NCBI GenBank assembly: GCA_036172245.1
Contig: JAYWIR010000040.1
Span: 930,001-994,000, forward strand
Source: Raillietiella orientalis
Lineage: Eukaryota
Direction of reading: 5' to 3'
DNA: 64,000 bases
Position numbers and translations under genes: made by a program
The notes under the pieces: model-generated
What the model saw: only the letters and a program-made list of their open reading frames with translations
Told to the model about the DNA's origin: nothing
Databases searched by the model: none
Shown: one piece after another, positions 4,412-61,028 of the stretch
Layout: each line of letters starts with the position of its first letter
How positions within the stretch are numbered: position 1 is the stretch's first letter

Positions 4412-4447
4412 AAGTGGGGAGGAGCGAGGTGCGTAGAATGCATGGGG

Positions 4448-33000: not shown

Positions 33001-33219
33001 ATCGCACTCATTATATATTGGCTCTGCAGCGCACACTTGTGTTTTATTTAGAATGACTCGTACATGTGTTTCTTTTCGTAGTTTCTCAAATTGCAAACGT
33101 TTTTCTGAAGCTTTTTGAAGCGAGATCCGGGATCCTCTTTCCACTGCCATCGAAGTGTGATGTGGCTGTTTTTCTCGTTTCCGATGTAGACGACGTTGAC
33201 TTGGGATGAAAGCAGAGCA

Positions 33220-33237
33220 TTTTTTTTTTTTGTTGAT

Positions 33238-33283
<46 letters not shown>
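33220..33283 (+). repeat. Poly(T) tract (~60 nt, briefly interrupted)
   Basis: Directly visible T run. Confidence 0.9.
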
Positions 33284-34405
33284 CCTCTCCGCCCCCTCCC
33301 CCCCCACTACCTTTCTGAGAGAGCTCGATGGCGGAAGCGTATGAGTAGCAGTGGCTGTCTTATTGACACCAGAGTCCAGACTGAAATTCACGTGAGTGAA
33401 GAGATGACCATGAGAAGAGATGTGCTAAGATGTGACATTTTTATAGAATGAAAATAAATGATTTTATAGATTTGTGACACCTTTCGTTGAGAACGACTTT
33501 TTTCCAGCCCTACTCGTGTAGCTCGGATCGAAAGTGAAGGCGGATGGGGGCCGCCTTGCAGGTTTTGGCCGAAGGAGTTGCACGGCTCGGTCAGAATCCG
33601 TTTGTTTCGTGGGTGCTCTCGCCGTGGCACGACGGAATGGGATCGTTGCTTTCGGATTTCTCTGGACCGCCATTTTCGAGCGCTTCCTTTCAGATTCTTT
33701 TGTGTTTTCCTTGTGAGGGACGCTTATGGTATCACACTGTCAGACGTATAATCTCCGTAGCGTGAGCAAGCACTTATTCTCGAAACCCACATGAAGCCAT
33801 GGTGGCACTGAGTCTTCGTGATAGAGGCAGTACTTTCTGGCGTGGCTCCTTCTTTTTTTCTTTTTTTTCTAGTAGAGGCCGAAGGAAAATTTACGTCGCC
33901 ATTTATTTTGTGACAATATTTGGGGTCGTTTGACGACGATCAGCTGAAAAATGAGGTGTCCAACGAAAGTTACGCAGACACGAGTTCGGCGATGTCGTTA
34001 TGCGTTTTTTTTTTCTTCCATGTTCTTGGTCTGGATGGGGCTGTTGAGACACGGAGGCTGGCACTTTGGCTTTGCGACCCGAGTGCAAGATCTGGTAAAG
34101 AATAAAATGGATCAAAGAAAGATAGATTAGTAGAGTGCACGAGTTCGCACAGGCGGGAAAGCATTGCAGTACAACTGAGAAGTACTGTGTACCGTGAGAA
34201 AACCCCAAGAGTGGCAACATCAGGATGAGCACAGGGATCCAAGTTGCCAGCAAGAGCAGAAAGGAACTTTCGTATTGGAGCCGAAACCGAATGAGGAAAC
34301 AGCAGGACGCAGTCGGAAAGGAAGATGGGATGGAAGGTCTGGGCAAGTCGCAAGCGCGTGAAGGGAACGCGGTACGTGTCCGGGGGGCGCTCGTGTGGCC
34401 TTTCA

Positions 34406-36824: not shown

Positions 36825-37401
36825 GCAGGAAACGCAGAGGACGCATCCCGAGATCCGACTCTGCTCCCCGGCTTGTCGAGCGCCCGGCTGCCGGGAGTCC
36901 TGCGTGGACGCTACCTCCCACTTGCCCCCTCCACAATTTCCGAGGCTGCGGAGGCGTCCTCCGCACACGACGGGTATTCTGGACAGCCGGCCCGAGTGAC
37001 CCGACCTCGGCTGTGTCCCGTCTGGTCCCTCCGTCGCCTCCTCACTCACCGAGGCTGTCTCGTCCCTCCAGAAGAGGTAAGCGAGGGAGGGGTCCTTTCT
37101 CTCTCTCCCGAGCCGAGGGGCCCTCTTTCTGAGAGAGTCTGCTGCGGTCGAGTCCAGCAGCACGTCCTCCGTGAGGAGGCCCAGCTTCTCCAGCTGCTCC
37201 CTGATGGCCTCGTGCTTCAGGCTCCACACGGAGACGAACTCCGGGGGCATGTAGAGGATGGACTCCAGATCGGGAAGGCCTCCGGCTCGGCCCAGTGGGA
37301 GCGAGGGATCCTGTTCCCTCAGCCGGCTCTCCTCTTCGTGCGCGGACCTCGACGGGACCTTGAGCATGAAGGCTTCCGAGCGAGCCTCTTCCCAGGTCGC
37401 C
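34900..37401 (-). other. Putative spliced minus-strand gene or pseudogene whose first visible exon is an inverted copy of the giant gene's exon 1
   Basis: Exon-like ORF MLKVPSRS...TEDVLLDSTAADSL...DETAS ends at donor GTGAGT (~37050). A canonical ~68-nt intron GTACGT...CTCAC...TTTCCTCCCCAG lies at ~36526-36459, and its acceptor was duplicated by the retroelement TSD. Downstream frames are unresolved. Confidence 0.4.
35392..36449 (-). mobile_element. 5'-truncated Tx1-like insertion (~1.06 kb) with a 12-15-bp target-site duplication
   Basis: TSD AGGGATGATCTG at 35377-35388 and 36450-36461. 3' terminus ATAAACGTCCCGGTGTGACAAGGTGACAA. zf-RVT FPLQHARRYHW..SPDCGRCEERES..HL and DAIDCAVRFLRI. 3' UTR matches 4900-5100. 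Confidence 0.8.
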
Positions 37402-39010
37402 TCGCCGCTGCCTCCTCCAGGTCATTGGGTGACCTCGCAGAGCCAAGTTTTGGGATGCGGACGAACGATGCTGCTTCCCGGCAACCGCGCACGCGCGCCA
37501 CTTTTCAGGGCGATCCCTCCGCGGGGGCGGAAAGGGGGAGGAGGGGAGGCCTTCGAAGGGAGAAATGAGGTGAAGGACGAACAAGAACTGGCCTACTTCC
37601 CGCGGAAGACCAAAGGTCAGGGAAGGGAATGATGCTTTCCAGGAAACCCCCCTTCTTCTTCCCAAGCATGGCAAGAGGGAAAGGAGGAGGGCTGAGAGAA
37701 CCCAGCGGAACGGGCGCCCCGATTCGCCCCAGAGAGACCACACGTGATCGTCGTGCGGGGTCGAAGGGAGGCAGACGCGTGAGCCCCCCGCGCAAAAGGA
37801 ACCCCATGGGATCCTCCGGGAGAGTGTGGTCGGGAATTTCCCTGGGGGTCGAAGAACCCGGATCAAGGAAGCGGAAAGGAAGCGATGAAAGAGGAGGGAC
37901 GAGCGATGATGCAGCGGCAGAGACTCCCAAGGAGAGAAGGAGAGAAGGGGGGGGTTTGTGGCTCACTTTCCTCCTTCTCTATCCCCATCTCTCCCCTCCT
38001 TCGACCCCTCTCCCCTCCGGAAGCAGCCGACCTCCGTCTGCAGCACCTCGGCCGCGGTCGCCTCCTGCAAGAAAGTGGCACAAAAGACCGGAAGTACGAG
38101 GGGAAGGGAAGCGTAGGGTTTGACCCCTCGCCCCGCAGCGTTCGCGCGGCGGCGCCAGCTCCTCCTGGCGCTCTCACTTCCGAAGCCTCCGGACGGGGAA
38201 AGCGCCGCCGCGAGTGCCTCTCGGGCGCACGCGCTCAGCCGCCGCCTTCCGTCGCCGGGCGCCGCCACTCCCGCGGCTTCGCATTGTTGCTGCCGCCGCG
38301 GGGCGCCAACAATGCGACGCCGCGGCGCTCATTCCAAAGTTCGCGGAGACGGATTGCGGCCCACCTCCAGCTTGACCCCCCAGCAAGGGACTACAGAGAG
38401 TGTGCTTTCTGATTCTTTTGCCTACAGGCGATCTCCCCCGGGTGTATTTAACAGCGGCTGATCACATACCGACCTCGGGCTGAGCTCAAAGCGATCCATT
38501 CGTTCTGACCACCTCCTCCTCTTCCTCGCACCGGTGAAACCCGCGCTTTCTCCGATCTCTGGGAGAGGTCCCGACGGTCCGAAGACCACAGGAAAGCGGC
38601 GAGGGAAAGGACAAAAAGGAAAAGAGGAAGGAAAGGGGACCATGTCTTCCCGGAATGCACCGGCAGGACTGGGTCAGGTCCGCGGGACTTCCAGGTCCCC
38701 GCTGGCGACGTCAATCTCTCGAATACTGAACGACGGCTCCGATGACCCGGAGGAGACACAGGCAACGGCAACCTGGGAAGAGGCTCGCTCGGAAGCCTTC
38801 ATGCTCAAGGTCCCGTCGAGGTCCGCGCACGAAGAGGAGAGCCGGCTGAGGGAACAGGATCCCTCGCTCCCACTGGGCCGAGCCGGAGGCCTTCCCGATC
38901 TGGAGTCCATCCTCTACATGCCCCCGGAGTTCGTCTCCGTGTGGAGCCTGAAGCACGAGGCCATCAGGGAACAGTTGGAGAAGCTGGGCCTCCTCACGGA
39001 GGACGTGCTG
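37158..39010. repeat. Inverted repeat: 37158-37401 vs 38767-39010 (~244 bp, ~3 mismatches), spacer ~1.36 kb
   Basis: Reverse-complement match. Both arms translate to the identical peptide ATWEEARSEAFMLKVPSRSAHEEESRLREQDPSLPLGRAGGLPDLESILYMPPEFVSVWSLKHEAIREQLEKLGLLTEDVL. Confidence 0.95.
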
Positions 39011-42000
39011 GAACGCGACGAGTGAGTGGCGGAAGAACCGCGCGCACCGGCGGCATCCGGGAGTAGCCGTTGACAAGTCTATAGCCTCCCGTCGCAGAGG
39101 AAGTCGCCGTCTTCCGGGCCTTCGCTGGACATCCCTATCACGCGCGAAGAGGGGGAGGGCGGTGGGTGTCGGCGGGGGCGGGGGAACGGGGTAGGAATGC
39201 GGCGCAGGAGGGTAGGAGGAAGGCGGATTCGTGCTCCCTGGAGGAGGAGGGGTGGTTCACCGCATCCTCGCTAGGTGGAGGCGACTCCGCACGCACACTG
39301 CGCTCCCCTCCGGTGTGCTCATCTTCCCCTTCCGTCCTTCAGGAGCGACGTCATCGGGCGGCTCCACGTTGGTCTTCCCTACGTCAACGAGAGCATGCAG
39401 ACAGATATCGATCAGATAGTTGACTTAAAGCATGTGGTCCAAATGATCTCGGACGTGAGGCAGGTGAGTATCTGGGAGGGGGAGATGAGGAAGACGAAAA
39501 GGGGAGGAGGAGATACTCGGGGCTCTTCGTGACGCGCCTTGAACGATTGACGCGACCTGCCGTCGCCAAGTCGTCAGCTGCGCACTCTCCAAGGTTCTCG
39601 AGGACGTGCGCTGCCCAGTCGCCTCCTTCCTTCCTCGCTGCTGCCGGTTCGCCTCCCCCCGGAGCGAAATGGCTGGTCGGGGTGCTGGGGTTCCCCACGT
39701 GGCCGTGTCCGTCCGTTTCTTGTACTCCTGCTGGCAGCGGGCTCCCCGGAAGGGTCTTTCGCGAACCTGTTCTTACGGTTCGGAAGGGCTCGCCAGGCTT
39801 TCAAGGCCTCCGCATGACACCTTCTGGATGCCTTCCCTGACGTCCTTCCGGCAAGAAGCTCGGGCATAGCCGCGCGACCCCTCCCACGGTTGTTTCGTGG
39901 TCTTCAGTTCAGAACAATCCCCTTACCACTCCGGGCTTTTGGCCAGGGAGCGCTGGACGGTGGTGGCAGAGCCCGTTCTTCCCAAGAACGATCCATCCGT
40001 GGGGCCAAAGAGGCGCGTTAGGGTGCCTCGGCCCCTGCATCGCGGCGCCGAGGTCGCTCGGATGGTGGGGACGGAACGTGAAAGAGAAGAGGAGAGAAAG
40101 ATCAGGGTGGCACATGGCGCAGCGGTGGCGTTGCTCGACATGACTGTGTGCCCAAACGGGGCATGGTGGGGGCAGGGGCACCTTCTTTTTTGTTTCTTAT
40201 TGCCTATCTGTAGCTCTTTCGAATCCGCGGTCTCATTGCTCCCACTCGCCACTTCCTGCTCCGTGGTCCTTCCAGGAGGAACGGCGGGGTCTCCGCGTTT
40301 ACCCGGAAGGCCTCGGAGCCCTGAACAAGTGCACGAGAGTTTCTTCCCCTTCCTAAGCTTGTGGGGTCGTCGCAGTGCGGTCCAGTTTTTCCTCGCAAGA
40401 GGAGGCGGGCCGCAGAACTGAGAGAGGCGAGTGCGTCAGAGGGGGTGGGTGGAGGCGCAGCTGCTCCAGGCCTGTACGGATGCTGCAGCATGGGCTGCTG
40501 ATGTATGCCAAGGGGCCACCAGGTGAGAGGCGCTCCCGCGGTGTCGAGGGGGCGCCGGCTGCGGATGAGAAACGGGGTGAGAGGAAGGGTTGCCATGGAG
40601 GAAGCGGGTTGGGAGGTCCGCGCTACTGCCGCTGCTGCAGTGCGCAGCAAGGCCGCGGGGCGAAGTGGTCCCCGGAGTGTCTCTCACGCGCGAGAAGGTG
40701 AGGCAGAAGGAGGGGGCGCTCACGTGCTCTTTCTGGTCCGCAGGAGGTGAAGCAGAAGGCCTCCGAGAACGAGGTGCTGTACAGGGACATGGACAGCAAC
40801 TTCGACGAGGAGCTCCAGCGCGCCGCGCGGCACGTGTGAGTCCCTGGGGTCGGCGCAGGGAGGAACAGACCTCGCCCGGGGGAGTTCGGGTGGGCGGAGC
40901 AGGAAGAGGGAGGGGGAAGGGAGGGAAACCTGTCTTCTCTCCTCGGCCTTCCCTCTCGCCTTGCTCCGAAAAAGACTCGCTCTTCCCTTCCCGTTGCAGC
41001 TACGAGCGCCTGCGATCCCTTCTGAATGACGTCGAGGAGGAGTACAAGAAGAGGGTGGAGGAGGTGCGCAGGAGCTGCAGGCAGCAGTTGGCGGACTGCG
41101 TCGCCAGGCTGGCGGCGATGTACCGGCAGCCGTACGTGCGGCCGGAGAAGAGCGTGAGTTTCCTCTCTTTCCCCCCTCCCCACGCACCCTTCCCTTCTCC
41201 CTTTGATCCCCCGCCCTTTCTTCTCTCCCTGGTTGATCCGCCCAGGGTGCCTCGAGGTGACGGCCTCCTGCGCGCTAGTTCGCGCGCGTGCGGTGGGCTC
41301 AACTCATGTGGTCCTTGGTGGCTGCGAGAGGAGAGAACTCCCAGCCCTTAGAAGGAGAGGAGCGACGCGCCTCTGCTCTTCCTTCAAGGACCGCAAAGTC
41401 GGCCCGAAAGAACGGAGAATTCGCAGGCCCGTACGCTGAGCTCGCCCCGTACTTTCGGGAAAAGAACGGGCCTTGCAACGGTCTCCCTGGAGATTTGAAC
41501 TCCGCTGCCGCCTTTCGTTTTTCCTCTCGCCGGATGGGGGCCTGCTAAGGTCCCTCCCAAGAACGGCGCACGGTCCCCTCTTTCGCTCTCCTTCCTCCTG
41601 TCCTGCGGACAGCGGTTGCCAACGGATCCCGAGGGACTCCGAGGAATGTGGGGACGCGGTCCCGGGTTGCCAAGGAGGTGGCTCTTCCTCCCGTGTCGCG
41701 GGTGCTTTCTCCTCCCCACCGATGCTCGGCGATTCCCACAGGAGACCCCCCTAGAGAATGCCACTTGGTGTCCAAGACCCTGAGGATGCTCCGGGAGACG
41801 GGAAGGAACACGCCCTCTCTCTTCCTTTCTTCCTCCCTATGTGGGTCCCAAAGCTCAGAGAAGAGTCCCTGAAGGGGAAGGGGGGAGGGTTGAGAAAGCA
41901 CGACCATCCCGGTTTCTCCCTCTGCTCCCCAGATGAAGCTGCTCAAGCTGGCGGGACCGGCAGGGGCGGTGCTCCGGCGACGCGGAGCCTACCTGATGCT

Positions 42001-45000
42001 GCAGGAGAAGTTGGACCAGTGCGAGCGCACGGTGGAGGAGCTGCGCGGCCAGCTGGCGGCGCAGCAGGACTACATAGGGACTCTTCTGGAGCAGATGAAG
42101 CACCGGCATCCGGAGATGGCTGCGGTGGTCAGCTCGCATTCGTCCGGGATGCTGGTACGAGGGAGAGGGGATGGAATGGGGGGGAGAGAAGGACCCGATC
42201 CCCCTATGCCCCTCTCTTTTGCAGCTGTCGACGACCCGGTCCTTCGAAGAGATGCCGATCACCGAGCCGTCGGATGCGGGGCTGAAGGAGGAGCCCTCGC
42301 CGCCGCTAGCTGCAGACGGCGCGGAGCTGCAGAGACTCAGTGAGTGGCTGTTACCCTGGGAGACCCTCTGCGGCGGGAGGGGGCTCCGGAAATCGGGAAG
42401 GGAGATGGATGGGAGCGCGCATGACAATGCGGCACCCACCTGGTGCGGAGATGCGCGGGAGGAAGGGAAGGGGCAGGCTGGCAAGGGTGGGGGAGGGGGT
42501 GAAGGAAGACTGGGAGAGTTCAAGGATGTGCAAGTGGGTCAGGAGAGGAGTCGAGGCGGGGCCGATGAGCGATGGGGGTTCGGGCGGCGGGTTGAGGAAC
42601 GCCGCGGTAATGGCGAACGGGGTGGGGGCAAGTGGGGTCGGGGGGAAGGGATGAGAGCATTGACCGCGATCTCGGATGAGCAGCAGCACCGAGCTGCGAG
42701 CGGTGGGGTGGGAGGAGGAGGGGCTGAACAGCGATGGAGCGACGGGGGGGATCCAGGATGGAAAGGGCGGGAGGCTACGGCAGGCGGTAGAGAGTGGGGA
42801 GAGGAACTGGGGCGCGGGGAGGGGTGGTGGCGGTGGCGGAGGAAGTTCCCTGCCTGTACCTGCCCCTGTTTCACTCGTCCACCAGTGAAAGTAGTAGCCA
42901 CCCTCCGCCAAGAGCTGGCCGACTGCATCGCTGACCGCAACGAGCTCCACGTGAAGGTGGGAAACCTGGAGGACTCCCTAGAGGAAGAGAAGTCGAAAGC
43001 GAAGGTACCTCCCTTGCTCCTCTTTCCGTTCCCGCTCCCCTCCCTTCCCCCTCTCCCGCTCACCGGTGGGCTCGCTTGGGGGGGGGGGGGGAAAGGACCC
43101 TCTTACAGCCCCTTCTAGGAAAACTCCCTCCTCCCTCTCCTTTCCTCTTCATGCCGTTCGACGAAGGTGGAGAAAGGCTGGAGAAAGGTGGAGAGGAGGG
43201 GGTAGGAAAGGAGTCTCTCCAGGAGAGGAGGAGGGGAAGAGGAAACGAGCATTTCCGGTCGCCTTCTGAGGATGCAGTAGAGCCAACCCGGGAAAAAGGC
43301 GTCCTGTCTTTCCCCTTTCCTCCTCTCCCAATCGGTGTGCTCCTCACGGAACGCCCGCCCACGCCAGGTCCCAGGAACGGAGTCTTTCGCCCCGTCCCCG
43401 GACTGTCGAGAGGGGAAGGGGGGCTGTGAAGCAGAAAGGAGCTGGAGACGGGCAGGGGGACGGAGGGAGAACGGGAACAGGAGAACGCGCTCCGCTGCAG
43501 GCGCTGCTCATCCATCTGCTAATCTCCACAGGTCAAGGAAGAGGTCCCGGAACCGAGGCTTCGCCGGGCGGAGCTGAAGGGGAAGAAGGCGAAGCCGACC
43601 CCTCCGGAGAGGAAGGAAGTTCTCCGGGAAGAAGCAAGGCCCAAGGAGGTCCCGAAACCTCCACCTCGCGGAGCTGTTCCAGAACAGGTTCCGAGGAAGA
43701 GGAAGAGGATCCTCTCGGATCAGAGCTGGGAGAGAATGGCGATCGAAGACGCGGATCGGAGCAAGGTGGACGACATCCTCAAGGACGCTTGGGAGCAGCT
43801 GTTTGACGGAGGAAGGGAGGAGGAGCGATTTGACGACGCGCTGGCGCCCCGGTCGGACGGCGGGGCTCCTCCCCTAACTGCCGTCGAAGTGGAAAACGCC
43901 TTGTTGAAGTCCCTGGACTCTCTGGACGAGCAGAACGAGATCATGCGGGATATCCTAGCTCGGGTGTTGCACGAGGTGGCGCTGCGCAAAGGGAAAAACC
44001 TGCGGGAGAAGGACAGGCGGATTGCACAGCTGGACAAGGCCATCGCCGACATGAGGAGCAGCTTCGACATGAGGATTAGGAGGGGGGAGGAGTGGAGCCG
44101 GGAGCGAAAGGAGGAAGGGGTGAGAAAGGAGGAAGAGGAGGAGGAGAGGAAAAAGAGGCGAAAGGAGGAGGAGGGAGAGCAAGAAACGGAGAGGAAAACA
44201 GATGAGGAGAGGAAAAAGCGAAAGAAACAGAGGGAAGAGAAGGAAGAGGAAGAAGAAAAGGAGGAGGAAATGGAAATGATGAGGAAGGAGGAGGAGAGGA
44301 GAAAGAGGAGAAAGAAGTTGGAGGAGGAGGAAAAAGAAGAGGAGATGAAGAGAAAGAGGAGGGAGGAAGAGAGGAGAGAGAGACGAAAGAAGGAGGAAGA
44401 GAAAGAGCTGGAGGAGGAGGAGATGGAGAGGAAGAGGAGGAAAGAGGAAAGGAGACGGAGACAGGAGGAGTTGGAGGAGGAAGAGGAGGAGATGGAGAGG
44501 AAGAGGAGAGAGGAGGAGCGGAAAAAGAGGCGGAAGGAGATGGAGGAGGGAGAAGAGGAGGAGGAGAAAAAGGAGGTTGAGGAGAGGAAAAAGAGGCGGA
44601 AGGAGATGGAGGAGGAAGAAGAGGAGGAGGACAAAAAGGAGGAGGAGGAGAGAAAAAGGAAGGTGAGGGAGTGGAAGAAGAGGAGGAAGCAGAGGGAACA
44701 AGAGGAAAAGAAAGAAGAGATGGAACAGGAAGAAGAGCTACATGTTCTGAAGAAGGCGTCGGAGAGGTTCCGGCGTGCGAGCCTTCCACAGGAAGAGATT
44801 GAGAGTGCCCATCACGCAAAACAACTGAGCGACCTGATCTCTGTCCTCTTGGAGGAGGAGCCTCCGACAGCGTCCGAGGTTCTGAGACGCCTCTCTTCCC
44901 TGTTTGAGACGGAAGGACGGGCGTTGGAAGAGGAGGAAAAGGAAGGGAAGCCGGTTCTTCCAAGGGGAGTTTCTGTGGTCATCTCGAAGAGGCTGCGGTC

Positions 45001-48000
45001 CGTCCAGGACACCGTGCAGGAGCTCAAGAACCTGCCTCTCGGCCACGCCGCCTCGAAGATCGCCGCCTCTTCCCTGTCGCAGCAGGCCGACCTGGTGAAG
45101 GAGTTTCTCGCCTTGGGCAGCGAGGTTCAGGGCGAGCAGCTGCTGCAAAAGTTCGCCTTCCTGGCAAACTCTCTGGACGAAATCTGCCGCGAGATGGTCA
45201 GAAAGCTCCGCGGTCAAGTGTTTCTGCCGCAGACAAAAGCACTGGTGGCGGAGGAGGCGGAGGAGAAGGAAGAGGAGGCGCTTCCGTTCTTCAAGTCGGG
45301 GGAGCCGACTGCCACCAAGCTCGTGCGGTTCAAGGGCAAGTCCGTTCCCGTGGCGTCAAGCCAATGGATGCCCCAGGTTCTGTTCATGAACCGCATCAGT
45401 GACCTCCTGGAGAGCGACCGCCCCATCCAGGAGAACGTGGAGGAGATCGGCTCGCTCCTTCGTCTGGCGGAGGATAGGGGCTTAGAGAAGGAGAACACCT
45501 CCCTGATCGAGTGTCTCCGCAGCCTGCAGGCGAACATCCTGGAGATGCCCTCTAGGAGGAGCTCGGAAATCCTGGAAGACCTTCAGCGTCAGCTTCTGAT
45601 TGCCACTGACGAGCTGAGGGACCGGCCGAGCTTATCGGCCATCCGCCTTATCGAGAAGAGCGCGGCGCCGCCCGAGATCATCGCGGATCTGGGCAAGCCC
45701 CCCAAGAGGAAGGACACTGGAGAGCTGGTCCAGGAGGTGGAGCTGGAGAGGTGGAAGGAGGACGCTCTCCGGAACGTGGTCTCCCTTATCGGTCTGGCGA
45801 GCGACGCGAAGGATATTCTGGGACCTTCCGCCCTAGCTCGCGTCCGGGAGCTCGTGCTGGCCCTCGGGGACCCTCTCCGACTCGACAAAAGTTTCGTGAA
45901 GGACGTCAGGAAGGCACTGGACGACGCACTCAGGAAGAGGGATGTCCTCGAGGAGCGGCGAAGAGATGAGGAGGAGGAGGAGGAGGAGAGGAGAAGAACG
46001 AGAGCGGAGGTGGTCCGGCCGCTCCTTCCCTCCATTCCTCCCCCGACCACCCACGAAGGTTTGGAATCCAGCATACGCGAACTCCTCCAACGAGAGCCTC
46101 TCGAAGCGGACGAGGAGATGTTGGTCCGGAAGCTGGAAAAGATCACTAGGCGCGGTGATCTCGCAACCGAAGAGCTTCCTCTGCTTCTGCAGGAGGCAGA
46201 GGAACTCATCTCGAAGGTGTCGCTGCCCTCGGAAGAGCTAGATCGCCTCGAAGGGGCTCTGGAGGGATTCCGGAGGAAGGCGGCTCCGCTCGACAGGAGA
46301 GCCGCCGACCTCGTCGACATCGTCCGGACGCTGGCCGGGAAACCCGTAGTGAGTCGCCAGGACGCGCGTCGCCTCCTGGAATCGGGGACGGCGTTCCTGG
46401 AAGAGGAGCTGAAAGAGGTGCCGCATCCGTCGGATAGCCTGCAAGAAGTCCTGCGTCTTTTGGGCGCTTCCCGAGAGCCAAAGGAAGGAATCAAGGAAGA
46501 AAGAGAGGAGCGCGAGGCCGCCTTGAAACCCAGAGACGCCTGCGAGATGCAGTTCTCTAGGACACTGCGCCTTCTGGAGCAGTCCTGCCTGGCGCTGGAC
46601 GTCCTTCGCACCTCCCTGCGCGACGCAGACGAGCTGCTGGTGGCGCTAGAGTCCGTCATCGCCTCCGCGTCTAGACCGTCCCTGGACCACTGGGAGAGCG
46701 TCGAGGAGTACTCAGTGTGGGCGAGCGAGAGGAGGCTGGCGATTGAGGAGACCAGGGAGACCCTGGAGCGCGCCTCCCGGATGCTGGAGTCCCCTGAGGA
46801 AAGGGAAGAAGTTGCGGTGCTTCTGGGAGAGCTGGCCCGCACCGCACCCACCAGGAGCTCGCTTCTCGACGCTGCGGGGGTCAAGTGGGAGCGCGGGCGA
46901 CGCTCGCTGTTGGAGGCTGAGAGCAGCCTGCAGGACCTGCAGGGCGCTGCCGACTCCCTGAGCACCTCGATCGGGGCCGAGGCGCCCGTTTCCGAGGATA
47001 TCTGCAGCCGCCTCCTGAGGAACTCTGTCTCCTTGGTGGCGCTCTTCGGAGCCAGCGGGGCGGGAACCGAGGCGAACCGCGTCCGCAACACCGCACTCCT
47101 CCTGGAGTCGGAAGACATTCAACCCGAGGACGCCCTAGAGGTGCTCCGCTCAGCGCTGCCGGGGATACGCCGGCGGCTCTCCGCCGAGGATGACGCCCTC
47201 GAAAGGATCGGGAAGGCGCTGCGCGAGGCTCGCGTGGCGCAGCCCTGCCGCAGGGACCATATCCTGGAACTGGCGCGGCTGTCGGGAGAGGTCTCCCAGG
47301 ATCTGCCCTGGGCGCTTTCCGCCCAAGGTCTCCTCGACGTCGACGGAGACGACGACGACGACCAAGGAGGAGCGAGCGAGATCTCCCGGAAGCTTCGCTT
47401 CCTCCTGACCTCGTCCCCATCTCGTCCCCCGCGGGAGAAGCGGGACACCACCCGAGCCCTGCGCTCCTTGAAGAAAACAGTGCGCCTGCAGCGTCACGCG
47501 GCGTGCGCCGTGGAGAAGCTGCGGGAGAAGAGTGAGCTGGAGGCCCAGGAAGAAAGACCGCCTCCTGGAGCGCATTTCCGGGTCCCACTGCACTTGGTGC
47601 GCGCGCTGGGTTTCCTCTCCGTCGACCTGCAAGCGTCTCTGGAAGAGACGCGGCGGCTCGCCGAGTCCTTGGACGAAAGTTCGGATCTCAGGCGCCTGCT
47701 GTTGCTGCAGGCCATCCCCTCCCTCGAATCTTTCGCCTCTCAATGTCGCCTCCCCCTCAGCCGCGCGGACCCGCGATCCACCCCTCCCGTGGAACCTTTG
47801 GATTTTTGCCGCCGGATCTCCAGGGAACCCCCAGGAAAAGGGACGAGAGCCCTCGCCCTGCTGTCTGGCTGCTATCACATGGCGCGCCGCGTGCTGGAGC
47901 TGAGGACGCGCCTGAGGGCCTCCCTCGGGTGGATACGCGCTCCTCCGCCCCAGGAAGAAGGAAGGGAGGAGGCTGAGCAGAACCAGGAAGACGAGGAAGC

Positions 48001-51000: not shown

Positions 51001-54000
51001 CCTGCGCCTCCTCATCGAGGAAGCGGAAGAGCTCGAAGTACACCCGACAGCGGTCGACGATCTGAGGAGCATCCGGAGAGAGCTGCTGGCAGGCGCGTCC
51101 CCTGAGGCGGTTGCGAGGAAGGTGTCCTCTGAGAAGGTGCTGCAGGAGGCGGGAAGGATCCCCACGCTGCCTCCGGACCTCGGCCGACTGGCAGGCGTGC
51201 TAGAAGATCTGCTGGAGAGCGAAGAAAGACGGTTCCCGCTCGAAGAACCGGTAAAGGAGCGGGAGAAAGAGAAGGAGGAAGAGGAAGAGGGTAAAGTGAG
51301 AGGAGCGGTGACTCAGGTGGTTCAGGCGCCTCGAGGACTCTCTTTGGGAGTCCCGGAGCTGCCCGCTTCCGTCCAGCAGAAGAGACTCTTGGAGCTTCTG
51401 GAAGCATGGTGGCTGGCGCCGCCAGCATTCTCCTTCCTCCAGGCGGAGTCCGCGCGCTGGGCGGCGCGGAGAGCAGACGCCGAGATCGTTCGCTGCAGGC
51501 GGGCTGCCTCCCTCGCCCAGGAGGCCAGCGACTCCGCTGTCGCTTTCGCCTCAGCTCCCGGAAAGGATCACGAGTCCTCCCAGGAGAAGCTGAAGGACCT
51601 CCTCGGCAAGTTGCGCCGCCTGCAAGCGGCACTGCTCGAACCTCTTCCGGGAGAGCAGGGTCGGGAGAAGGACAAGCCACCCGAACTTTCGGACGCCCTG
51701 GGGAAGATTCTGTTCCGCCTCTCGGAAACGGCGTTCAGTTTGCCCGACGTCGTCGAAGCCGCCCGCTGGGCGGCGGCGGAGTTGGCGCGCCTGCATGCGC
51801 AGTTGTCCTGGGGAGACTCTGCCGTACAGGAGGGCTTCGAGGGGGAGCTGCATGACGCTGTGGAGCGCCTCCTGGGACCCTGGCGGCTGCGGACGCATGT
51901 GGCCGCAGCCGAGCACCTCGCCCGCCTAGCATTGCTGCCCTGCTACGCAACTCCCGGGGAGGACCTTCCCGGCTCCTCGCCGCAGCAGCGGCTGCTGGAG
52001 GTTACGGCGGCTCTGGCCCGCGGTTGGAAGCGGACCGAGTCCCGGCTGCCCACGGCGCGGGAGGAGGCGGTGCGCTTGCTGGAAGAGGCGGTCCACTGCT
52101 GCGGAACCACCGGGCGCCTACTCACGCGGCTGCACTCCCTGACCGAAGAGGAAGAGAGAGAGGGAGAGGAAGGAGGAAGAAACGGTGCCGAGGACCTCCG
52201 TGGCCTCCTCGAGGCTTGCGGGAGAGTCTGGAGCGATCGCCACCCGGAAGTACGCGAGATCCTGACAAAAATCGGAACCCTGCTCGGAAAAGGAAGAGCT
52301 GGGGCGATCCGGGAGGAGGTCGAGCGCCTGGAAAGGCTCCTGCTCTCGGGCGTCGCATCGGACCGCCGGGAGCGCGTGCTCCGTTTGGCCAGGGAGGCAT
52401 CCTCAGCAGTTGTCAGTCTCACCGAGGGCGCGCAAGCTGAGAGTCGTCGCCTGGGACACCGCCGACAGCGGCTCCCGCGCCGTCGCCCTGCCTCCAGGAA
52501 AAGAGAGAATGAGGTAGATCACTCCCTCCTGGAGCTCCTAAGCATTCTGACACCTCGCCTGCCATCCCTTCGAGGACCGGAAAGGCTGCTGAAGCAGCTG
52601 CTGTCCTCCCGAGGCAAGGAAGAGACCGGTAAGCGCTTCCCGACGCACCGGAGGAAATTCCTGCGTGCCAACGAGGCGGCCAAGAGCCTCGTGGACCTCC
52701 TGGAAGAGGAGCTGCGCGCCAACGCCCTCATTCTAGACTGCCTGTCCGACGTAAAAGAACAGCAGAAGCTTGGCGACGGATCCTTCTCTTCGGCAAAGGC
52801 CATGGTGAGAGACGTTCTCTCGGCAGGCGTCGAGAATGGCACCTTCCTGGACGTGCTCGCCCAGAAACTCCCGTCGCTCTTGGAGGAGATGCCTCCGGTT
52901 CGAAAGGACGCATGGGAACCCTCCACCCGGGTCCACGAGAAGCTCATCTCCATGGGAGATCTGCAGTGGTCGCTTCGGGATGCTTCGGAGCACCTTCGTG
53001 CGTTCCTGGAGCCATCCTCTCCCGTTCCAGGAGAGGCTCCGCCTCTGCGAGTCCTGCTGGATCGATTGAGGTCTTCCAAAACTCTGCTGACGTCTTCTCC
53101 GTACCTTTCCGACACGTCGAAGGAGTCCCTAGAAGAGTGCCTGAGGATTCTGCAGCAGGAGGAGGACGAACGGAAGGAGGAAGAAGAGAAAGAGGAAGGA
53201 GAGGAAGTGGAAAGAGAGAGAGGAGATGAGGAAGAGGGCGGCGTGGGCGTCCAAAGTCCTGCTTTCGGCCTGCTCCTGGGCTCGTGCATTGCCGCCGCCG
53301 CCCCGTCCGAGGGAGAGGACAACCTCCTGCGCGGCTTGGAGGAGCTCCTGTCGTCTTCCTTCCCGGAAGTGGACCATTTCCTCCGGACCACGCGCCTGCT
53401 GCGGCAGCTGGCGGAGCTGGAGGAAGAGCTGTGCGACTCTGCCGACGGAGAGAGGGCTGCCGCCTTTCCCGAGAAAGAGCGCCTAAACCTCCTGGATCGG
53501 GTGCACTTTTTGGCATCGTTCCTGGCTCCGGACCTCCCTCCAGAAGAAGCCGAGAGCCTGTGCGCGCTGCTGCGGGCCTTCCGGGCGGAGAGAAAGTGTC
53601 CAAAGGAGGAGGAGGAGGAGATCGCAGCGATCGAGGCGCTCCTTTCCCAAGGCGTTAGCCATGAGGACAATCTGCGCCACCTGGAAGGCCGCGTAGCCTA
53701 CCTGGAAAGCCGGGTGCCGCCCGAGTGCGGCTGCGTCACTCATGCCCTCGACGAGCTGAGGCGGTCGCTGCGCCCTCCAGCACCCCTGCCTGCCCTGGAC
53801 CGTCTGGAGACAGAGCTGACGAGCTTCCTCCGGGACGCGGCGGAGGTAGGCACCTTTCTCGACGACTTGAATTCGGACCTGGAGGCGATCGAACGGGAGA
53901 GAGAGAAGGAAGAGGCGACTGAGGGGAGGACGTCGCTCGACGCCACCATCACCTCAGGCAAGGAGGTCGTCTTCCTCGTTGAGCAGGCGGAGCGCCTGAA

Positions 54001-57000
54001 GGAGAGGTGCCGAGAGGCTGTTGTCCTGGGGTTCGGCCCCTCCCTCGTAGACTTGCTACGGGACCTGCGGAGTCGTCTGGTGTTCACCTCGGCGGCGGTC
54101 CCAGGGTGGAACCCGGGATTGCAGGCACGAACCCTGGCGGGGTCGCTGAAGACCCTCCAGGAGGAGCTGCGCACATCGCGGCGCATGGCAGGAGAGCTGC
54201 GAGCCAGCGTCGCCCGAGTCAGGGAGAGGAGCCGGGAAAGGCGGCTACGCAGGGACCTCGGCCTTCTGGCAGCCCAGAGCCTCACATCTGTGGTTCCTGG
54301 AAAGCAGAGGGGAGCCCTCTGGGAGGATGTGGCTCGCGGTCTGGAAGGGTTCCTGCGCGAGGACGCTCCAGTGACCCGCGAGATGGTGACCGACTCCTGG
54401 GAGGCGATGGACCGCCTCAGGGCTTCGTACTCTGGGTTCCGGGAGCGTCTCGCGGACAGTCTTCCGTCAGTTCCGCCCGTCTCTTTAGAAGAGGAAGTGG
54501 CGGCGGTCCAGCGAGATATGATCGCGGCCAAGGAACTGAGCCGGGCGCTCGAGCACCTGGCGTCCCACCCGGCCATGGCGGAGAGTAGGAGGAGGACCGA
54601 GGCCCTGAGCGCCATTCGGGAGAATCTTCCGGTGGCGCTGCTGCGCGTCGAAGGGTTGGCGGCACTGCTGAGGGAGAGCCCGAAGAAGGTCAACACGGAG
54701 CTCCTGTCTGCGGCGGTGGACCTGCAAAGGAGTGTCTCCCAGAAAGACGTGCACGCCGTCTCAGAGCTCGTCCGCAGGATCGCGCGAATGCCCTTCGCTC
54801 GGGAAGATACTGGGGTCGAGAAGCTGGACACGGAGACCACGAGAACAGTTCTCGAGATCATACGTTCCCTTCGAGACGTGCTCTGCCAAGAGGATCTCGA
54901 AGAGGAGGAAGGGGAGGAGGAGGAATCCGTGCGTCTGCTTCCCCCCGCGATCGAAAGCGCGGTGCGGGTCCTGGAGAGAATGAGGGCGGTCGCCGGCCCT
55001 CCCCCGAGCCAGCAGAATTGGGAACAAGTCACCGAGGAACTGAAGACGGCACTCGCGGACGTTTCCTCCCGGATACGGAAGATCCGCGGACGTCCCCCTG
55101 CGCGATGGACGAAAGGAACCGCCGCGGAGGCCGGAACTCTCTGGGAGCGCCTTAGGACGGAGACAGACGCTTTCCTCGAGCATCTCTCACGAAAGCGCGA
55201 GGAAAAGGAGGAGGAGAAGGATCTGGAGAGAGGGGTGGATAACTTTTTCTCCAGTCTAAGATCCGTCCTCGAGCAGATGGCAGCCACACCCGTGCAGGAC
55301 TGGGGGAGCGAAGCGGTGACCGCCGCCGTACACCGCTTCCTGAGGATGCCTCCAGAGGAAGAATCGGAGGAGGAGAAAGAAGAGGAGGCAGAGGAAGAAG
55401 AGCGAGCGGAGAGGAGGCAGAGGAAAGAAAGCAGGAGAAGGGAGAGGGTGATTCCTGGTCTGGACGCCAAGACACTGGAAGTTTCTCGGACCCTGCAGCT
55501 CTTTCTGTCGAAGACTGCAGAGGTTCCCGGATTGTTGAGTCCCGACATGGCCGCGCGTGCCAGGGAGATTTCCGCGGAGGGAAGCAGAGCCAGCGCGGAG
55601 GAACTGCTGCGCTTCATCCGGGAGCTCCCGTTCGAGGAGAGGCCGCGTGTGCAGGAGGTTTACGAGAAGACCGCACGGCGCCTTCTGGAGGAGTCACAGG
55701 AAGCGGCGAAAGAGTTGGAAGAGAAGGAGCGAATCGCGCGGGATCTGGAAGAGCGTCGTCCGCCGGCACTCCTGCTGGAGGCCGCGGAGGACTCGGAACG
55801 CCTCCTGGAAGAGCGGTTCTCCAGAATCGCCGACCGGCTGGAAGTTCTGGAAGGAGAGATCAAGGAGAACGTAGAGGACGCGAACGCCGCGTTCCTTGAT
55901 GTCCTCAGGGAGTTTTCGTCCTCCCTCCGCCCTGGAGAGGGTTCATCTCTTGCCGTTGTGAGGAGAAAGACCCCTTCCCTCTTCGCATCCGAGATGGAAG
56001 AACTCCTGCGACGCCTGAACCGGGAGGTGTCCACGGGCATCACCGACCGCGCCCGCCTGACGAAGATGTGGGGCCGGCTGCAGAGGCAACATTATCAAGC
56101 CCTCTCAGAAGGAATCGAGGCGAAGGAAGGCGAAAAGGAAAAGGAAGAAGAGGAGGAGGAGAAGGAAAAACTGTCATCCTTGAAGGAGGCGACACGGCTG
56201 GCGACGCAGGACGCGAAAGCCTTCCTGGAGGTGGCGACTTCACGCGAGGACATGCTTGAGGAAGGGACGCTGGACGCTTTGGCGAGAGCCTCCTCCACCG
56301 ACGCGGAGGACCTCTCTCCGAGGGAAGCGGCTCGCAGGGTCCTGGAAGCCCTGGGAAGGCGCCTTTTCCGGAAGAGTGCGACAGAGAAGGCCTGCGATGA
56401 GGTCGTCGAGAGCGCCCGAAGGCTCGCGGGGTTACCAGCAGCCCGAGGGGAGGAGACGGTCGAAGCCACGCGGCAGCTCCGCCGACGCGTCGAAGCGCTG
56501 AGGCGGCGGACGGTGGCGCCGGGAGAAGTTGCCGACGCTGTCCTACCGGATTTTCTGGACTCGGCCGAGACCTTCCTGCGGAGTGCGGAGGCGATCCTCG
56601 AGGAAGAAAAGACAGCCGAGGAAAAACCGGAAGCCTCATTCCGCGTTCACCTCCTACGGGACCGTCTGGAAACTTTCGCGGATCGGCTGGCCTCCATCCC
56701 GCCGACTAGAGGCAGCAGCGTCCTTCGGACCTGGAGCCAGCTGCAGAGGAGTGCTTCGATCCTGACTCCATCCCGTGAAAGGAAGACCCTCGATGAGGAA
56801 GAGGAGCTGGAAGAGGGCGAGTCGTATCCCGAGGAGGACTTTCGGAAGCGAATGAAGAGCCTGGAACGCCAACTGAAGGCCGGATTGCCTCCAGAAGGAG
56901 AAGGGAGGCGCCTGGAACGATTCTGGGAGGCGGTGCGCCGATGCGTGGCGCGAGAGGCCGCCGCTCCCCTGCCTGAGAAGGAGCGAGAGGAAGAGGAGGA

Positions 57001-60000
57001 GGAGGAGCACCCTCCCGCGAAAGAGAGGCTGAAGATGGGATGGAAAGCGAAGAAAAGGGGAGTACCCTCCTTCCCGTCTGCAGGAACTCCTGCTCATGCG
57101 GTCCTAGAGGACCTCGGGCGGCTGCTGCTCCTGGAGCGCCGGGTTCGGGGACGGAGGGCGCCAGTAACCTTGGAGGAGGCCCGCCGCGTGATGTCCAACC
57201 TGGAGAGCTTGAGAAGAGCCGATCCGAATTTCCCGGAGACCCTGCGTGGGCTCTTGGAGCGGGCCGTATGGGCGGCTTTCGCCCGCGAAGGCTGTGGCGA
57301 AGCGGAAGATGAGGCGCCTTCGAGGGACCTCGGGGAGGAGGCCGTCGGATCGATCCTGAGGAAGCTGAGCCGGAGGCTGGAAGAGGTACACCGGATGGTG
57401 GGAAACGTTCGTCCGGAGTGGGTCCGGAAGACCGACTCCCTGGCCTCCAAGTACAGGAGGGATCAGGAGCTCGTCCCGCTCAGGACCCGGGAGGTTCCTG
57501 TGAGGGACTCCACCGGTCGCTGGGAGGCGCCTCTGAGCGCGACAAAACGAGTCCTTCTGGAAGAGGCCCTGGAGCATCTGGAGAGGGCTCTGGACAACGC
57601 GCTGCTGCAGGACGAGAAAGGCACCCTCCGGGGCGAATCCACGAAGGTCGAGAAGGTGCGCTCCCTGCTGAAGCAATCGCGGGAGGCGGAAGGGCAGGAG
57701 TTCCGCCAGTCCACCCTTCTGGGAATGCTCGCTTCCGAGTGCCGTGACCTCTTTGGAAAGCTGTCCCCGTCGCAGATGAGGGAGCTGCAGGAGAAAGTAA
57801 AGGTCATCTCCGGGTTCGCGGGGGAGGGCGGCGCCGCCGCAGAGGAGAAGGAGGAGAAGGAGAAGGAGGAGGAGAAGGAGAAGGAGAAGGAGAAGGAGAA
57901 GGAGAAGGAGAAGGAAAAGCCAGAGGCAAGAAGGGAGGAAGCGGCAGCCCTGCTTCCTGGCGCTCGGATCACGCTGGAGGAGCGTCGCGAGTGGCCGACG
58001 GTACAGCCATCAGGGATAGTGGCCGAGAGGGAGCGGGAAGAGGAGGAAGAGGATGCTCGCTGGAAATGGGTCAACACCCAGAGGGGGCGGGCGATCAGCG
58101 AGCTGCTGGACTCGGCGCCGGGGGTGCTGAGGTTGCCGGTGCTGGCGCTTCTGGAGCGTCTGACGACTCCGGCGCCGAGGCAGGCGCCACTCCGAGGCAT
58201 TGAAGATGTGCGCTCTTCAGCCAGTCGCCTGATATCGCGCGTCGTGGAAGGGTTCGCCGCCATCGACGAGGTTCTGTATGGGATGCTGGAGGAGATGGAC
58301 CTTTTCTTCTCGGCTCCGAGCCCGCCCGGCTCCTTTCCAGGTCAGCGAGAGGCTCTCCTGGAATCCGGGCTGTACAGCATCGCGGAGGTGAGCAAGAGAC
58401 TGAGGGATGCTGCCGGGAACGCCCTCGATCACGACGCCGAGGTGCTGCTGAGGGACGCCCTGCTTTCCTTCTCCCCTCCCCCCCCTTCCACCGTCGCCGC
58501 TGCATCTCCCGGTGACCTGCTCGTTCCGTTCGGGGCGGGTCCCGTCCTCTGGGAACTAGCGCGGACGGTGCGCGATCTGGAGCGCTTGCCGGTTCCCGAG
58601 TCCGCTCTAGAAAACGCCCTGCTCGGTGAGGTCAGTCGAGCTCGGGAGGCGGCAGAGGAAGGAGAGCCATCTCTCCTGCAACGCGTCCGTGAGCTCCAGA
58701 GGAAGGCGGCGGAGGAGTTGCGGCAGCGCCGCCGGAGCCGCCAGCTGCTCGAGAAGAGCTCCAAGGTCGCCAGGCTGCTGGAGTTCCTGCGGAGAACCTC
58801 GGGCGCCGCCGACCTCGAGAGGGAGAGGCGCGCCGCCCGACGCGTCGACCTCGCCTCGGAGGACAAAAGCGTGCAGACTGTGGCAGCAGAGGCTGCAGAA
58901 GCCGCGGAGGCGGAAGAGGAATCTGCGAGAGATGCCACCGCCCTCGCTGCCGCTACTCCTTCTCTTCCCATCCTCCTGAAAGGAAGCGCCTGCCAGACCC
59001 TGCCCACCATGCTGACCAGTGTCGAGCTGCTGAAGGGCATCATGGAGGAAGGCGTTCCCCCGCTGGAGGACGAAGCCCTCGAAGACGACGAGGAGAGGCA
59101 GAGGCTCTGGTCGGGTAAGCGAGGGAGAGGGAGAGCAACCACCCCCGCTTCGCACCGCCTTGGGAGTAGGGAGCAAGGGGATAGAGGCAGAGACAACAAA
59201 CGACCCTCCGCAAGGGTCACTTGCTGTCACGAAAAGAGGAAACACCTCGAAGCGTCGTCCTCCTCCCCTTTCCTGGGGTTCACCGCTTCTCTCACTTTCC
59301 CCTCCTCCTCCTTTTCTCTTGCTCCTTTCCAGAAGACTCTTAGATGAGGGGTAGGAAGGAAGGCGAAACGCCTTCGCGACGCCCGTGGACCTCTCTTTTC
59401 CTCAACACCCTTCCGTCCCTTAAGAAAAAAGAGAACGGGGGGGGGGGGAGCGGGAAGGGAAAACGACTGCGGCAGACTGACGTCTCCAGAAGGAAGGTTC
59501 TCCAGCGCTCCGCAAGCTTTGCCGTAACCCCAACCCACCCATCCTGCGCATCTCCATCCCTTCCTCCTTCCCCCTCCGTTCCTTCCTTTATCCCTCCGCT
59601 GCTTAACCAGAGCGCTGCTTCTCCAGAAAGCGGCGGGAAGGCAACGGGACGGGCGGGCCACAGATCGCGACTCGCTCGTCACTCCCCTCACTCCGCCTCC
59701 ACGCCCACGGAGGGACGGAATCACGAATTGGGAAGAAGGATCGTGCGTGCACACGCTCTTTCGCATGCGGGAGAGAGAGAATGATGCCCTTCTCTCCCTC
59801 TTTCTTCCTTTCTCCCCTTCCTCTATCTCTTCCTCCTTTACTTGAAAACTCCCTCTCCATCCTCCACCAGCTCTGCCGAAGATCAGGAAGATCCCGGATT
59901 GGTACAAGGAGAGGATGCCATCCCGAGCGGTCCAGGCGACCCCCACGATGACTTCACGGGGCGAGTTGGCGCAGACACCCTCATCAGTGGTCCAGACAGG

Positions 60001-61028
60001 GACGGACGGCGATGTGCGTTCCTGGCGCCACGCCTCCCTGCAGTGCGTCCCGGAGGCGCACAGCAAGTCCGCCTTGACAGACTCGCTGGAGAGGGTCGAC
60101 GCCTCGGAGGGGACCTGGGGTCTGGAGACCGTCGAGGCAGCCTCGGGCACCGCCCCTGTCCCGCTGCGAGACCAGCACACCTGGACGGGAGTCGAACCCG
60201 AGACGCGCTGGGCACTGCTCACGCAGGTGGAAGGCGACGGCGCGCCCGAGCCGATAGACTGCCTCGAGGCGACGGCTCTGCGACGCGACCGCGTGTCCGT
60301 CGTGCAGGCCCTCAGGACAGTCCGGGAGTCGGAATTCGCGGGAAGACCCGCCGCTCCTCCTCTGCCCAGCAGCCTACCCACGCAGACCAGCGCCGCCAGG
60401 CTCTACGAGATGCCCGAGTTCAGGAAAGAGGTTCGTCCCTTGCCCGGTTGAGGGTGGGAATGGACAGGGGAGGGAAGGGCTGCGCCAGAGAAGGGGAGAG
60501 GGGGAAGAAAACTCGCACCATGGTGCACACTTGTTGATCTCAGGTCAGCCTGACCTTCGGGAAGACTAAGAGGTCCCCCGTCGCCACCGCTACGGCTGCC
60601 ACTGCGCAAGAAGGCAAGCGCGCGAGGGCGCGCCCGATCCCGGAACAGGAGGAAGAACTCCGGGAGGAAGTTGCGAGGCTGAGGAAGCAGCTGGAAGGAG
60701 CGGACGCCGCGTGCCGGAAGAAGCTCGACGCCCTCCTCCGGGGGTCGCTGCTGGCGCGGAAAGACGAGTCGCTCCTCAGGGAGCGCCTGGAGCAGCAGCG
60801 GGCTGCGAAGGAGGACCTCATGCCCGTCTCCGTGAGGTTCCAGGCGAGTGCCGCACCCGCAGAGCGCTAACGAGGGGCAAGAGAAGAGCAAGGAAGGCCT
60901 TTTCCTCCTTCGTTCTTGATCCTTGTCCATCCGCGCTCACTGACCAGACTCCCACTTCTTTCTTCCAGGATGAACGCCCTCTCGGCATGTTTCCCGAGAT
61001 CACAAAGGCGGAGCGTCGCGCCAACCTG
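38642..61028 (+). CDS. C10orf67: Giant (>=~5,900 aa) alpha-helical/coiled-coil protein, C10orf67/DUF4709-like. Exons: 38642-39021, 39343-39463, 40744-40835, 41000-41153, 41933-42154, 42225-42339, 42886-43004, 43532-59114, 59871-60430, 60544-60831, 60969-61028. The last exon(s) beyond 61100 are unresolved
   Basis: All ten junctions are GT-AG and phase-consistent, and the 5203-aa ORF is in frame with the acceptor at 43531. Exons 2-4 (GRLHVGLPYVNESMQTDIDQIVDLK...FDEELQ...EEEYKKRVEEVRRSCRQQLADCVARLAAMY) match the DUF4709 pattern recalled for C10orf67 (QTD..EI...QQLADA.A....MY). Exon 10 (LRKQLE....CRKKLDALL..LLARKDESLLRERL) matches the recalled C-terminal EKKF.IL..S.HALK.E motif. The family assignment is from memory; the gene structure is read from the sequence. 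Confidence 0.8.
41440..41830 (+). mobile_element. Highly decayed 3' fragment of the Tx1-like family inside an intron of the giant gene
   Basis: cacttggtgtccaagaccctgaggatgctccgggag resembles the family ORF2 end (acttgccgacaccctgaaaaggatgctgaggag). GPCNG resembles LPCNA. Confidence 0.35.
44090..44740 (+). repeat. Purine-rich coding low-complexity repeat encoding an E/R/K single-alpha-helix-like segment
   Basis: ~650 nt almost entirely A/G, with alternating E4-6 and (R/K)4 blocks (EEEEMERKRRKEERRRR...) in degenerate ~20-25-aa units. Confidence 0.9.
57842..57916 (+). repeat. (GAGAAG)n coding microsatellite (EK repeat) within the giant exon
   Basis: gaggagaaggaggagaaggagaaggaggaggagaaggagaaggagaag... 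translates to EEKEEKEKEEEKEKEKEKEKEKEKE. Confidence 0.9.
59440..59760 (-). mobile_element. Decayed Tx1-like 3' fragment in the intron after the giant exon
   Basis: Patches cgggaaggga, cagagcgctgct and ggagggacggaatcacgaattgggaagaagga parallel 35615-35960 in the same order. Confidence 0.3.

Follow-up and report, generated by a model that had tools for sequence, protein, structure and literature searches.

Can a reading frame of more than 5,000 codons be a single exon of a gene whose other exons are all small? This is the question raised by a locus of Raillietiella orientalis (Eukaryota) contained in 64,000 nucleotides (nt) of the genome assembly GCA_036172245.1 (contig JAYWIR010000040.1, positions 930,001 to 994,000 of the forward strand). 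We refer to this whole stretch as the window and count positions from its first letter. The answer that we favour, with a probability of about 60%, is that the window contains one spliced gene on the + strand, with at least 5,867 codons, whose product would be a DUF4709 protein; 89% of that protein would be a lineage-specific helical segment encoded by one giant exon (43532-59114) and serving as a scaffold or spacer. This is a joint estimate, covering the presence of all exons in one messenger RNA (mRNA), the production of the protein and its scaffold role, which we infer together.

The giant exon is genuine coding-type sequence. When open reading frames (ORFs) of at least 300 codons were listed in the window from stop to stop with the standard code, 19 were obtained, and the largest by far runs from 43523 to 59347 on the + strand over 5,274 codons. 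Its 15,822 nt contain no in-frame stop; over the same stretch, the five alternative frames contain 129 and 67 stops on the + strand and 51, 34 and 79 on the - strand. At the off-frame rate of 0.0186 stops per codon, the probability of finding none in 5,274 codons is about 1e-43 (log10 about -43), and 200 first-order Markov simulations of this sequence yielded no stop-free run above 950 codons in any frame (mean 440). The longest stop-free runs in the remaining GC-rich parts of the window are of 381, 540 and 351 codons. The frame also carries a steady codon signature, with GC contents at the first, second and third codon positions of 0.707, 0.456 and 0.758 (GC1, GC2 and GC3), and both GC1 and GC3 exceed GC2, in one and the same frame, in 104 of 104 overlapping segments of 300 nt. 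The single uninterrupted, stop-free exon described by an earlier reading of these letters, made by a model from the sequence alone (hereafter the sequence-only reading), is therefore upheld.

The same observations bear on the idea that the giant frame is not translated and that, in this GC-rich region with its purine skew, it is an accident of composition, a pseudo-exon in decay or an artefact of assembly. Such an origin would agree with a sequence that has no relatives and no domain, and GC-rich DNA does give rise to long chance ORFs, which here attain 639 amino acids (aa) on the opposite strand. Yet the absence of stops at P ~1e-43, a length of 5,274 codons observed against a simulated maximum of 950, a three-base periodicity that is strict throughout, a window sequence with 0 N bases and a simple-repeat share of about 4% of the exon are all at odds with it, and we consider it highly improbable. 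As for the ORFs of 300-639 codons that lie on the - strand inside the giant exon (43720-58009), they probably result from the GC-rich composition of the coding strand; no Pfam family was detected in the 11 long antisense and other-frame ORFs of the giant region that were scanned.

A related alternative accepts the coding nature of the frame and shortens the exon: short stop-free introns might be removed inside it, or the frame might be used in part, and the true exon would then fall short of 15.6 kb. With the off-frame stop rate given above, roughly one in four introns of about 150 nt would contain no in-frame stop, and GT and AG dinucleotides are plentiful. However, every such intron would need a length divisible by 3, or a compensating second intron, to preserve a downstream frame that stays open for thousands of codons, and the periodicity keeps to one frame in all 104 segments, which leaves no space for a long hidden intron. 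We regard this alternative as quite unlikely.

The limits of the giant exon agree with a codon-usage coding score trained on the giant frame. This score turns positive at about 43530, 9 nt past the upstream in-frame stop and some 200 nt ahead of the first ATG. At its other end the frame remains open to 59347, yet the score collapses already at about 59110. The predicted donor at 59114 coincides with this collapse and leaves an open-frame tail (59115-59347, + strand), at the end of which, with the donor unused, the protein would terminate at the stop 59345-59347. In the scan of long ORFs mentioned above, a lone weak Pfam match (DUF3438, E-value (E) 0.047) fell on the in-frame tail.

Around the giant frame we rebuilt a phase-consistent gene model of 11 exons, ten of them small (60-560 nt), by combining islands of coding score, seven of which lie upstream, with the locally strongest GT/AG sites around each. 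An unconstrained dynamic-programming model over-predicted, with 18 upstream exons; its implausible additions, among them micro-exons of 9-12 nt, were discarded, and only the seven exons with coding signal and strong sites were kept. All exons are on the + strand. Exon 1 (38642-39004, 363 nt) opens with an ATG at 38642 in the context ACCATGT, has a positive coding score over 38700-39000 and ends in phase 0 at the donor GAC/GTGCTG (slashes mark splice junctions). It is followed by exon 2 (39392-39463, 72 nt, donor GTGAGT), by exon 3 (40744-40835, 92 nt), recognised by its coding score and by its sites CGCAG/ and /GTGAGT, and by exon 4 (41000-41153, 154 nt). Exon 5 (41933-42127, 195 nt) has a coding score, appears coiled-coil-like and gives only weak generic coiled-coil matches in Pfam, below cut-off (TolA_bind_tri, E 6e-4 to 9e-4). 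Exon 6 (42225-42339, 115 nt; acceptor TTTTGCAG/ and donor /GTGAGT) is the least certain of the small exons and is required for the phase consistency of the chain, and exon 7 (42886-43004, 119 nt) ends on a codon boundary. Downstream of the giant exon, which is exon 8, come exon 9 (59871-60430, 560 nt), with a moderate coding score and no Pfam family, exon 10 (60544-60831, 288 nt), coiled-coil-like and with a strong coding score, and exon 11 (60969-61028, 60 nt), introduced by the very good acceptor TTCTTCCAG/.

Six upstream and two downstream junctions of this model are phase-consistent, and the four sites that connect the giant exon to its neighbours read AAG/GTACCT (43004), CCACAG/GTC (43532), CGG/GTAAGC (59114) and CACCAG/CTC (59871). 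The coding sequence joined from 38642 to 60430 amounts to 17,253 nt, in phase and stop-free. Built independently, the model contains ten small exons in the same size range as those of the sequence-only reading, so that the same chain was recovered around the giant exon, with good GT/AG sites at the junctions. The accompanying statement that the other exons and introns of the genome are tiny agrees with the small exons found here (60-560 nt) but not with the introns of the gene, which measure 97-1,280 nt and are not especially tiny. Position 61028, where the span given by the sequence-only reading ends, is a splice donor and not a 3' end: GTAAGA comes next, not a stop, and the gene probably continues further. 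If exon 10 were read on with no further intron, a stop would be reached at 60868-60870, for a total of 5,859 aa.

At the passage from exon 7 to exon 8, the chain might conceal two genes. The DUF4709 gene, made of exons 1-7, would end soon after 43004, and the giant ORF would be separate, alone or with exons 9-11. Read-through of the 43004 donor finds the frame open for 38 more codons and then a stop ending at 43118, and an in-frame methionine about 70 codons into the giant ORF (the first in-frame ATG, codon 72, at about 43736) would offer a start for the second gene. The giant part has no detectable homology to anything, the DUF4709 family included. Nevertheless, position 43532 has a good CAG acceptor with its pyrimidine-rich run, located 9 nt past the in-frame stop upstream. 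At this acceptor the coding score has already turned positive, 200 nt ahead of the first ATG, where a separate gene would begin. In addition, exon 7 ends in phase 0 as the acceptor needs, which taken alone would be a 1-in-3 coincidence. We thus see the two-gene arrangement as conceivable but somewhat doubtful and retain a single gene, in which the splice signals and the coding score suggest that the giant exon is joined to the DUF4709 exons in one mRNA.

The family to which this gene belongs is indicated by its small upstream exons, and the assignment of exons 2-4 to DUF4709 is, on profile evidence, very likely. The ORF containing exon 4 (40581-41351) matches the Pfam profile PF15821 (DUF4709) with 28.6 bits (E 2e-6; positions 73-109 of 110), thereby reaching the gathering score of the family, which is set at 27 bits. 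The alignment starts at 41001, the first full codon past the predicted acceptor. The ORF of exon 2 gives a weaker match, collinear with the first (profile 6-39, 13.7 bits, E 0.088). Exon 2 would thus contain the start of the domain, exon 3 presumably its middle and exon 4 its end, and together they comprise 106 codons, close to the 110 positions of the profile. The exon 4 match stays significant after correction for the total of about 310 ORFs and exons submitted to Pfam scans. The giant exon, whose sequence is similarly charged and helical, serves as an internal negative control: over 5,000 aa it gave no DUF4709 match at E<=1. The resemblance of the small upstream exons to DUF4709, which the sequence-only reading had proposed, is hence recovered by profile search in the form of the 28.6-bit and the collinear 13.7-bit matches.

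The other end of the protein tells a different story. C10orf67 pairs DUF4709 with a C-terminal DUF4724, and human C10orf67 has about 550 aa. No DUF4724 match was obtained at E<=10 in the ORFs 59846-60451, 60538-60870 and 60974-61846, at E<=1 in the exact exons 9 and 10 and in 35 + strand ORFs of at least 25 aa between 60900 and 64000, or in the giant exon in the Pfam scan; no other Pfam family was found in exons 9-11 or in the 35 further downstream ORFs. A conserved end is therefore shown on one side only. From the picture of two conserved ends flanking a giant insertion we keep the N-terminal one, DUF4709, and abandon the C-terminal match to DUF4724/C10orf67, which was detected neither in exons 9-11, nor in the downstream ORFs, nor in the giant exon.

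Other searches of these exons were less informative. A word-based protein search with exon 4 left 0 of 10 candidates at E<=0.01, which is weak evidence with a query of just 51 aa, and the eight matches of exon 4 in the PDB (E 0.41-4) include none that is meaningful. The ESM Atlas returned nothing usable, with a best value of 0.85 for the exon-4 region, to unnamed clusters, and of 0.75 for exon 10, to the coiled coil of myomegalin. Our literature search found no paper under the name DUF4709 and no description of a giant C10orf67-type gene. In the C10orf67 literature examined, genome-wide or other association studies and expression lists predominate, and a yeast two-hybrid study states that no clue to C10orf67 function was obtained (PMC5094585).

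The giant exon is entered in phase 0 and left in phase 1, its 15,583 nt being 3 x 5,194 + 1, and it is therefore not skippable in frame, a property that had been correctly identified from the letters. A direct join of exon 7 to exon 9 falls in the frame of the ORF 59607-59951 and reaches a stop 26 codons into exon 9, so that the predicted product of skipping exon 8 would be a prematurely terminated protein of about 396 aa with the DUF4709 part only. Conversely, the giant exon and its extra base must be included for exons 9 and 10 to fall into their high-scoring frames. Because skipping shifts the frame, the giant exon would be constitutive in any productive mRNA, a conclusion that we hold jointly with the one-gene reading and with the same confidence. 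Alternatively, and more speculatively, the locus might act as a two-state switch between a scaffold of about 5,900 aa and the truncated, DUF4709-only product of about 396 aa, possibly subject to nonsense-mediated decay, with a helical segment of 5,194 codons that arose locally in one poorly sampled animal-like lineage, neither by repeat expansion nor by capture of a gene; we deem this combination rather unlikely.

What the giant exon encodes is a polypeptide dominated by glutamate (15.4%), leucine (13.5%), arginine (12.4%) and alanine (10.8%), with 5.1% proline, in which the Pfam scan found no family. It has no detectable internal repeats and is not a repeat array of the AHNAK type. Comparison of 150-aa fragments with the whole giant exon by BLASTP gave 0 non-self matches at E<1e-3, and hhalign alignments of 200-aa segments, covering 150 of 253 possible pairs, reached a probability of 18% at most, compared with 4% when the partners were shuffled. 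Hydropathy shows a weak, unconfirmed periodicity at lags of 42-46 residues, of borderline significance (z 3.8 among 371 lags). At the DNA level, the sole sizeable repetitive part is an imperfect tandem repeat rich in E, K and R codons, with periods of about 66-78 nt (44122-44706, + strand), to which are added a short (AGGAGA)n array encoding a Glu-Lys dipeptide repeat (57852-57919, + strand) and a few short minor arrays; simple repeat makes up just about 4% of the exon.

Relatives of this polypeptide were sought at several scales. A word-based search with ORF residues 1-5000 produced 1,099 candidates (2,900-9,230 aa), none of them at E<=0.001. An exhaustive HMMER search with residues 1501-2700 against 1.84 billion representative proteins gave 0 matches at E<=0.001, and the giant protein itself is therefore absent from that representative collection. 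In two metagenome scans 575 and 586 pattern stretches were matched, and in a viral scan 374, with none confirmed in any of the three. CFAP46, the one marginal match of a PDB sequence search with 5,000 aa (E 0.0057, query residues 208-300), was rejected: the match falls in the E/K/R repeat and was read as low complexity.

Models of two stretches of 1,000 aa each, made with AlphaFold from single sequences (exon residues 501-1500 and 3501-4500), are almost wholly helical with essentially no strands; the modelled helices are mostly of 10-50 residues, the longest of 64, with short loops between them. The hydropathy profile is autocorrelated at lags of 3, 4 and 7 residues (0.12, 0.13 and 0.15, respectively), and its spectral power at a period of 3.5-3.6 residues is about three times the mean. 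Prolines occur once per 19.5 residues. A heptad-like signal is thus present, but the prolines and the short looped helices do not describe a continuous coiled-coil rod. Taken together, these features would be better explained by many short amphipathic helices in an array, or by a chain with some disorder, than by one continuous coiled coil, and the helices might possibly be arranged as bundles or as a solenoid, partly disordered. From the huge helical rod imagined by the sequence-only reading, we accordingly keep the helical models and the i+3/i+4/i+7 periodicity and give up the rod as a continuous structure, given a proline content of 5.1% and short helices with loops.

These elements can be assembled into a single proposal. 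The locus would be one animal-type eukaryotic gene with at least 11 exons, in which exons 2-4 would give rise to the DUF4709 domain and exon 8 would account for about 5,194 codons out of a minimum of 5,867. The giant segment, apparently lineage-specific, non-repetitive and rich in Glu, Leu, Arg and Ala, would consist of short amphipathic helices and proline-containing loops. Its most likely role would be that of a very long spacer or scaffold, extending a small conserved DUF4709/coiled-coil module that would anchor the protein to its usual partners.

Several points weigh against this proposal. All exon junctions are predicted from sequence, and no 3' end was identified for the gene. A stronger donor (CGA/GTGAGT, at 39021) lies close to the phase-0 donor GTGCTG of exon 1, which makes exon 1 the least secure end of the model; the 39021 donor would leave phase 2, break the phase and require an additional exon. 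The DUF4709 match covers part of the profile in each exon, exon 3 alone giving none in the exon-by-exon scan, and the matched segment is a charged helix that weakly touches unrelated helical families (VMAP-M2, E 0.006; UTP20, E 0.16). DUF4724, the C-terminal domain of the family, was not found. Both AlphaFold models are of low confidence, with mean scores of the predicted local distance difference test (pLDDT) of 46.9 and 49.7. Finally, no relative of the giant exon was found in the searches described above.

The gene is embedded in a sharp compositional mosaic. The parts of the window at about 2-16 kb and 33-62 kb have a GC content of about 53-69%, mostly near 63%, and a ratio of observed to expected CpG of 0.8-1.0. 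Between them, a block at 20-32 kb, taken as 20001-31000 for comparison with the rest, has about 30% GC, a CpG ratio of 0.38 and a CpA/TpG excess of 1.36, values that are a signature of methyl-cytosine deamination and not of repeat-induced point mutation, which was considered and rejected for this block (TpA/ApT 0.77, (CpA+TpG)/(ApC+GpT) 1.41). HPRT-like exons lie in the AT-rich block on the - strand (19683-20223), where 38 of 92 candidates match at E<=1e-5 with 41-60% identity. The named matches are metazoan except for one from a chytrid fungus, and the top one is from Daphnia carinata (53%). They suggest an animal, or a close relative of animals, from a lineage with little representation in the databases, and CpG that is undepleted over 30 kb speaks against a typical vertebrate. 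PRTFDC1, a member of the HPRT family, is presumably located in the same chromosome band as human C10orf67, a mere hint of conserved linkage. The block also contains exons for C2H2 zinc fingers with classical linkers (28309-28958, + strand), downstream of which a 173-aa acidic ORF (30936-31457) may belong to the same gene. Where the AT-rich and GC-rich parts meet, a long homopolymer-like A/T-rich run at about 33090-33300 reads as poly-Lys in several frames.

Closer to the gene, most of exon 1 has an inverted duplicate 1.3 kb upstream, on the - strand (37158-37425), which matches 38742-39010 with 96.7% identity over 269 nt and 99% over 244 nt. This copy may be a recent duplication or an assembly feature, and if both arms were co-transcribed they would form a long hairpin. 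The upstream region also contains a direct repeat of 109 nt (34406-34514 and 36716-36824, 86% identity). Outside the gene, a Pfam scan of the 119 ORFs of at least 110 aa detected no transposon domain, and neither the Rfam scan nor the tRNA scan returned any match in the window.

If it is expressed as modelled, exon 8 would be among the largest coding exons described in any gene, and an unusual one, as it is neither repetitive nor related to the proteins of very large databases and yet is open across 15.6 kb. The gene would then offer a natural case for studying how an ancient, small protein can acquire a huge orphan polypeptide and how an exon of this size is defined during splicing when its neighbours measure 60-560 nt, as well as a striking variant for the study of the DUF4709/C10orf67 family. 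Should the segment have arisen locally, within the two-state switch considered above, it would approach a de novo origin of a giant protein domain within an ancient gene. With two genes in place of one, the remainder would be an orphan gene for a giant protein, which would be notable but less informative.

Comparison with known systems helps to place the single gene that we favour. It resembles the C10orf67/DUF4709 family in its exon 2-4 region, which matches PF15821 and is followed by short coiled-coil-like exons, and in its animal-type surroundings, where an HPRT-like gene lies 19 kb upstream. It departs from that family in size, with at least 5,867 codons against about 550 aa in human C10orf67, in the lack of a detected DUF4724 and in the orphan segment that makes up about 89% of the protein. 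With AHNAK and the giant-exon isoforms of ankyrin-G and ankyrin-B it would share an architecture in which one exon of many kb, flanked by small exons, encodes most of a very large structural or scaffold protein. The giant exon of AHNAK is, however, an array of recognisable repeats, whereas no internal repeat is detectable here, and the giant exons of ankyrins are alternatively included in frame, whereas the exon studied here is not skippable in frame. FSIP2 and CCDC168, which are fast-evolving and testis-expressed, resemble it in having a huge exon for a poorly conserved helical or disordered polypeptide with few recognisable domains; they differ in that the host family here is DUF4709 and in that no sequence similarity was found in the HMMER search with residues 1501-2700. 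The combination of a non-repetitive giant exon, no in-frame skipping, an orphan sequence and a host family that is otherwise small thus appears to set this gene apart from AHNAK, the giant ankyrins, FSIP2 and CCDC168 alike.

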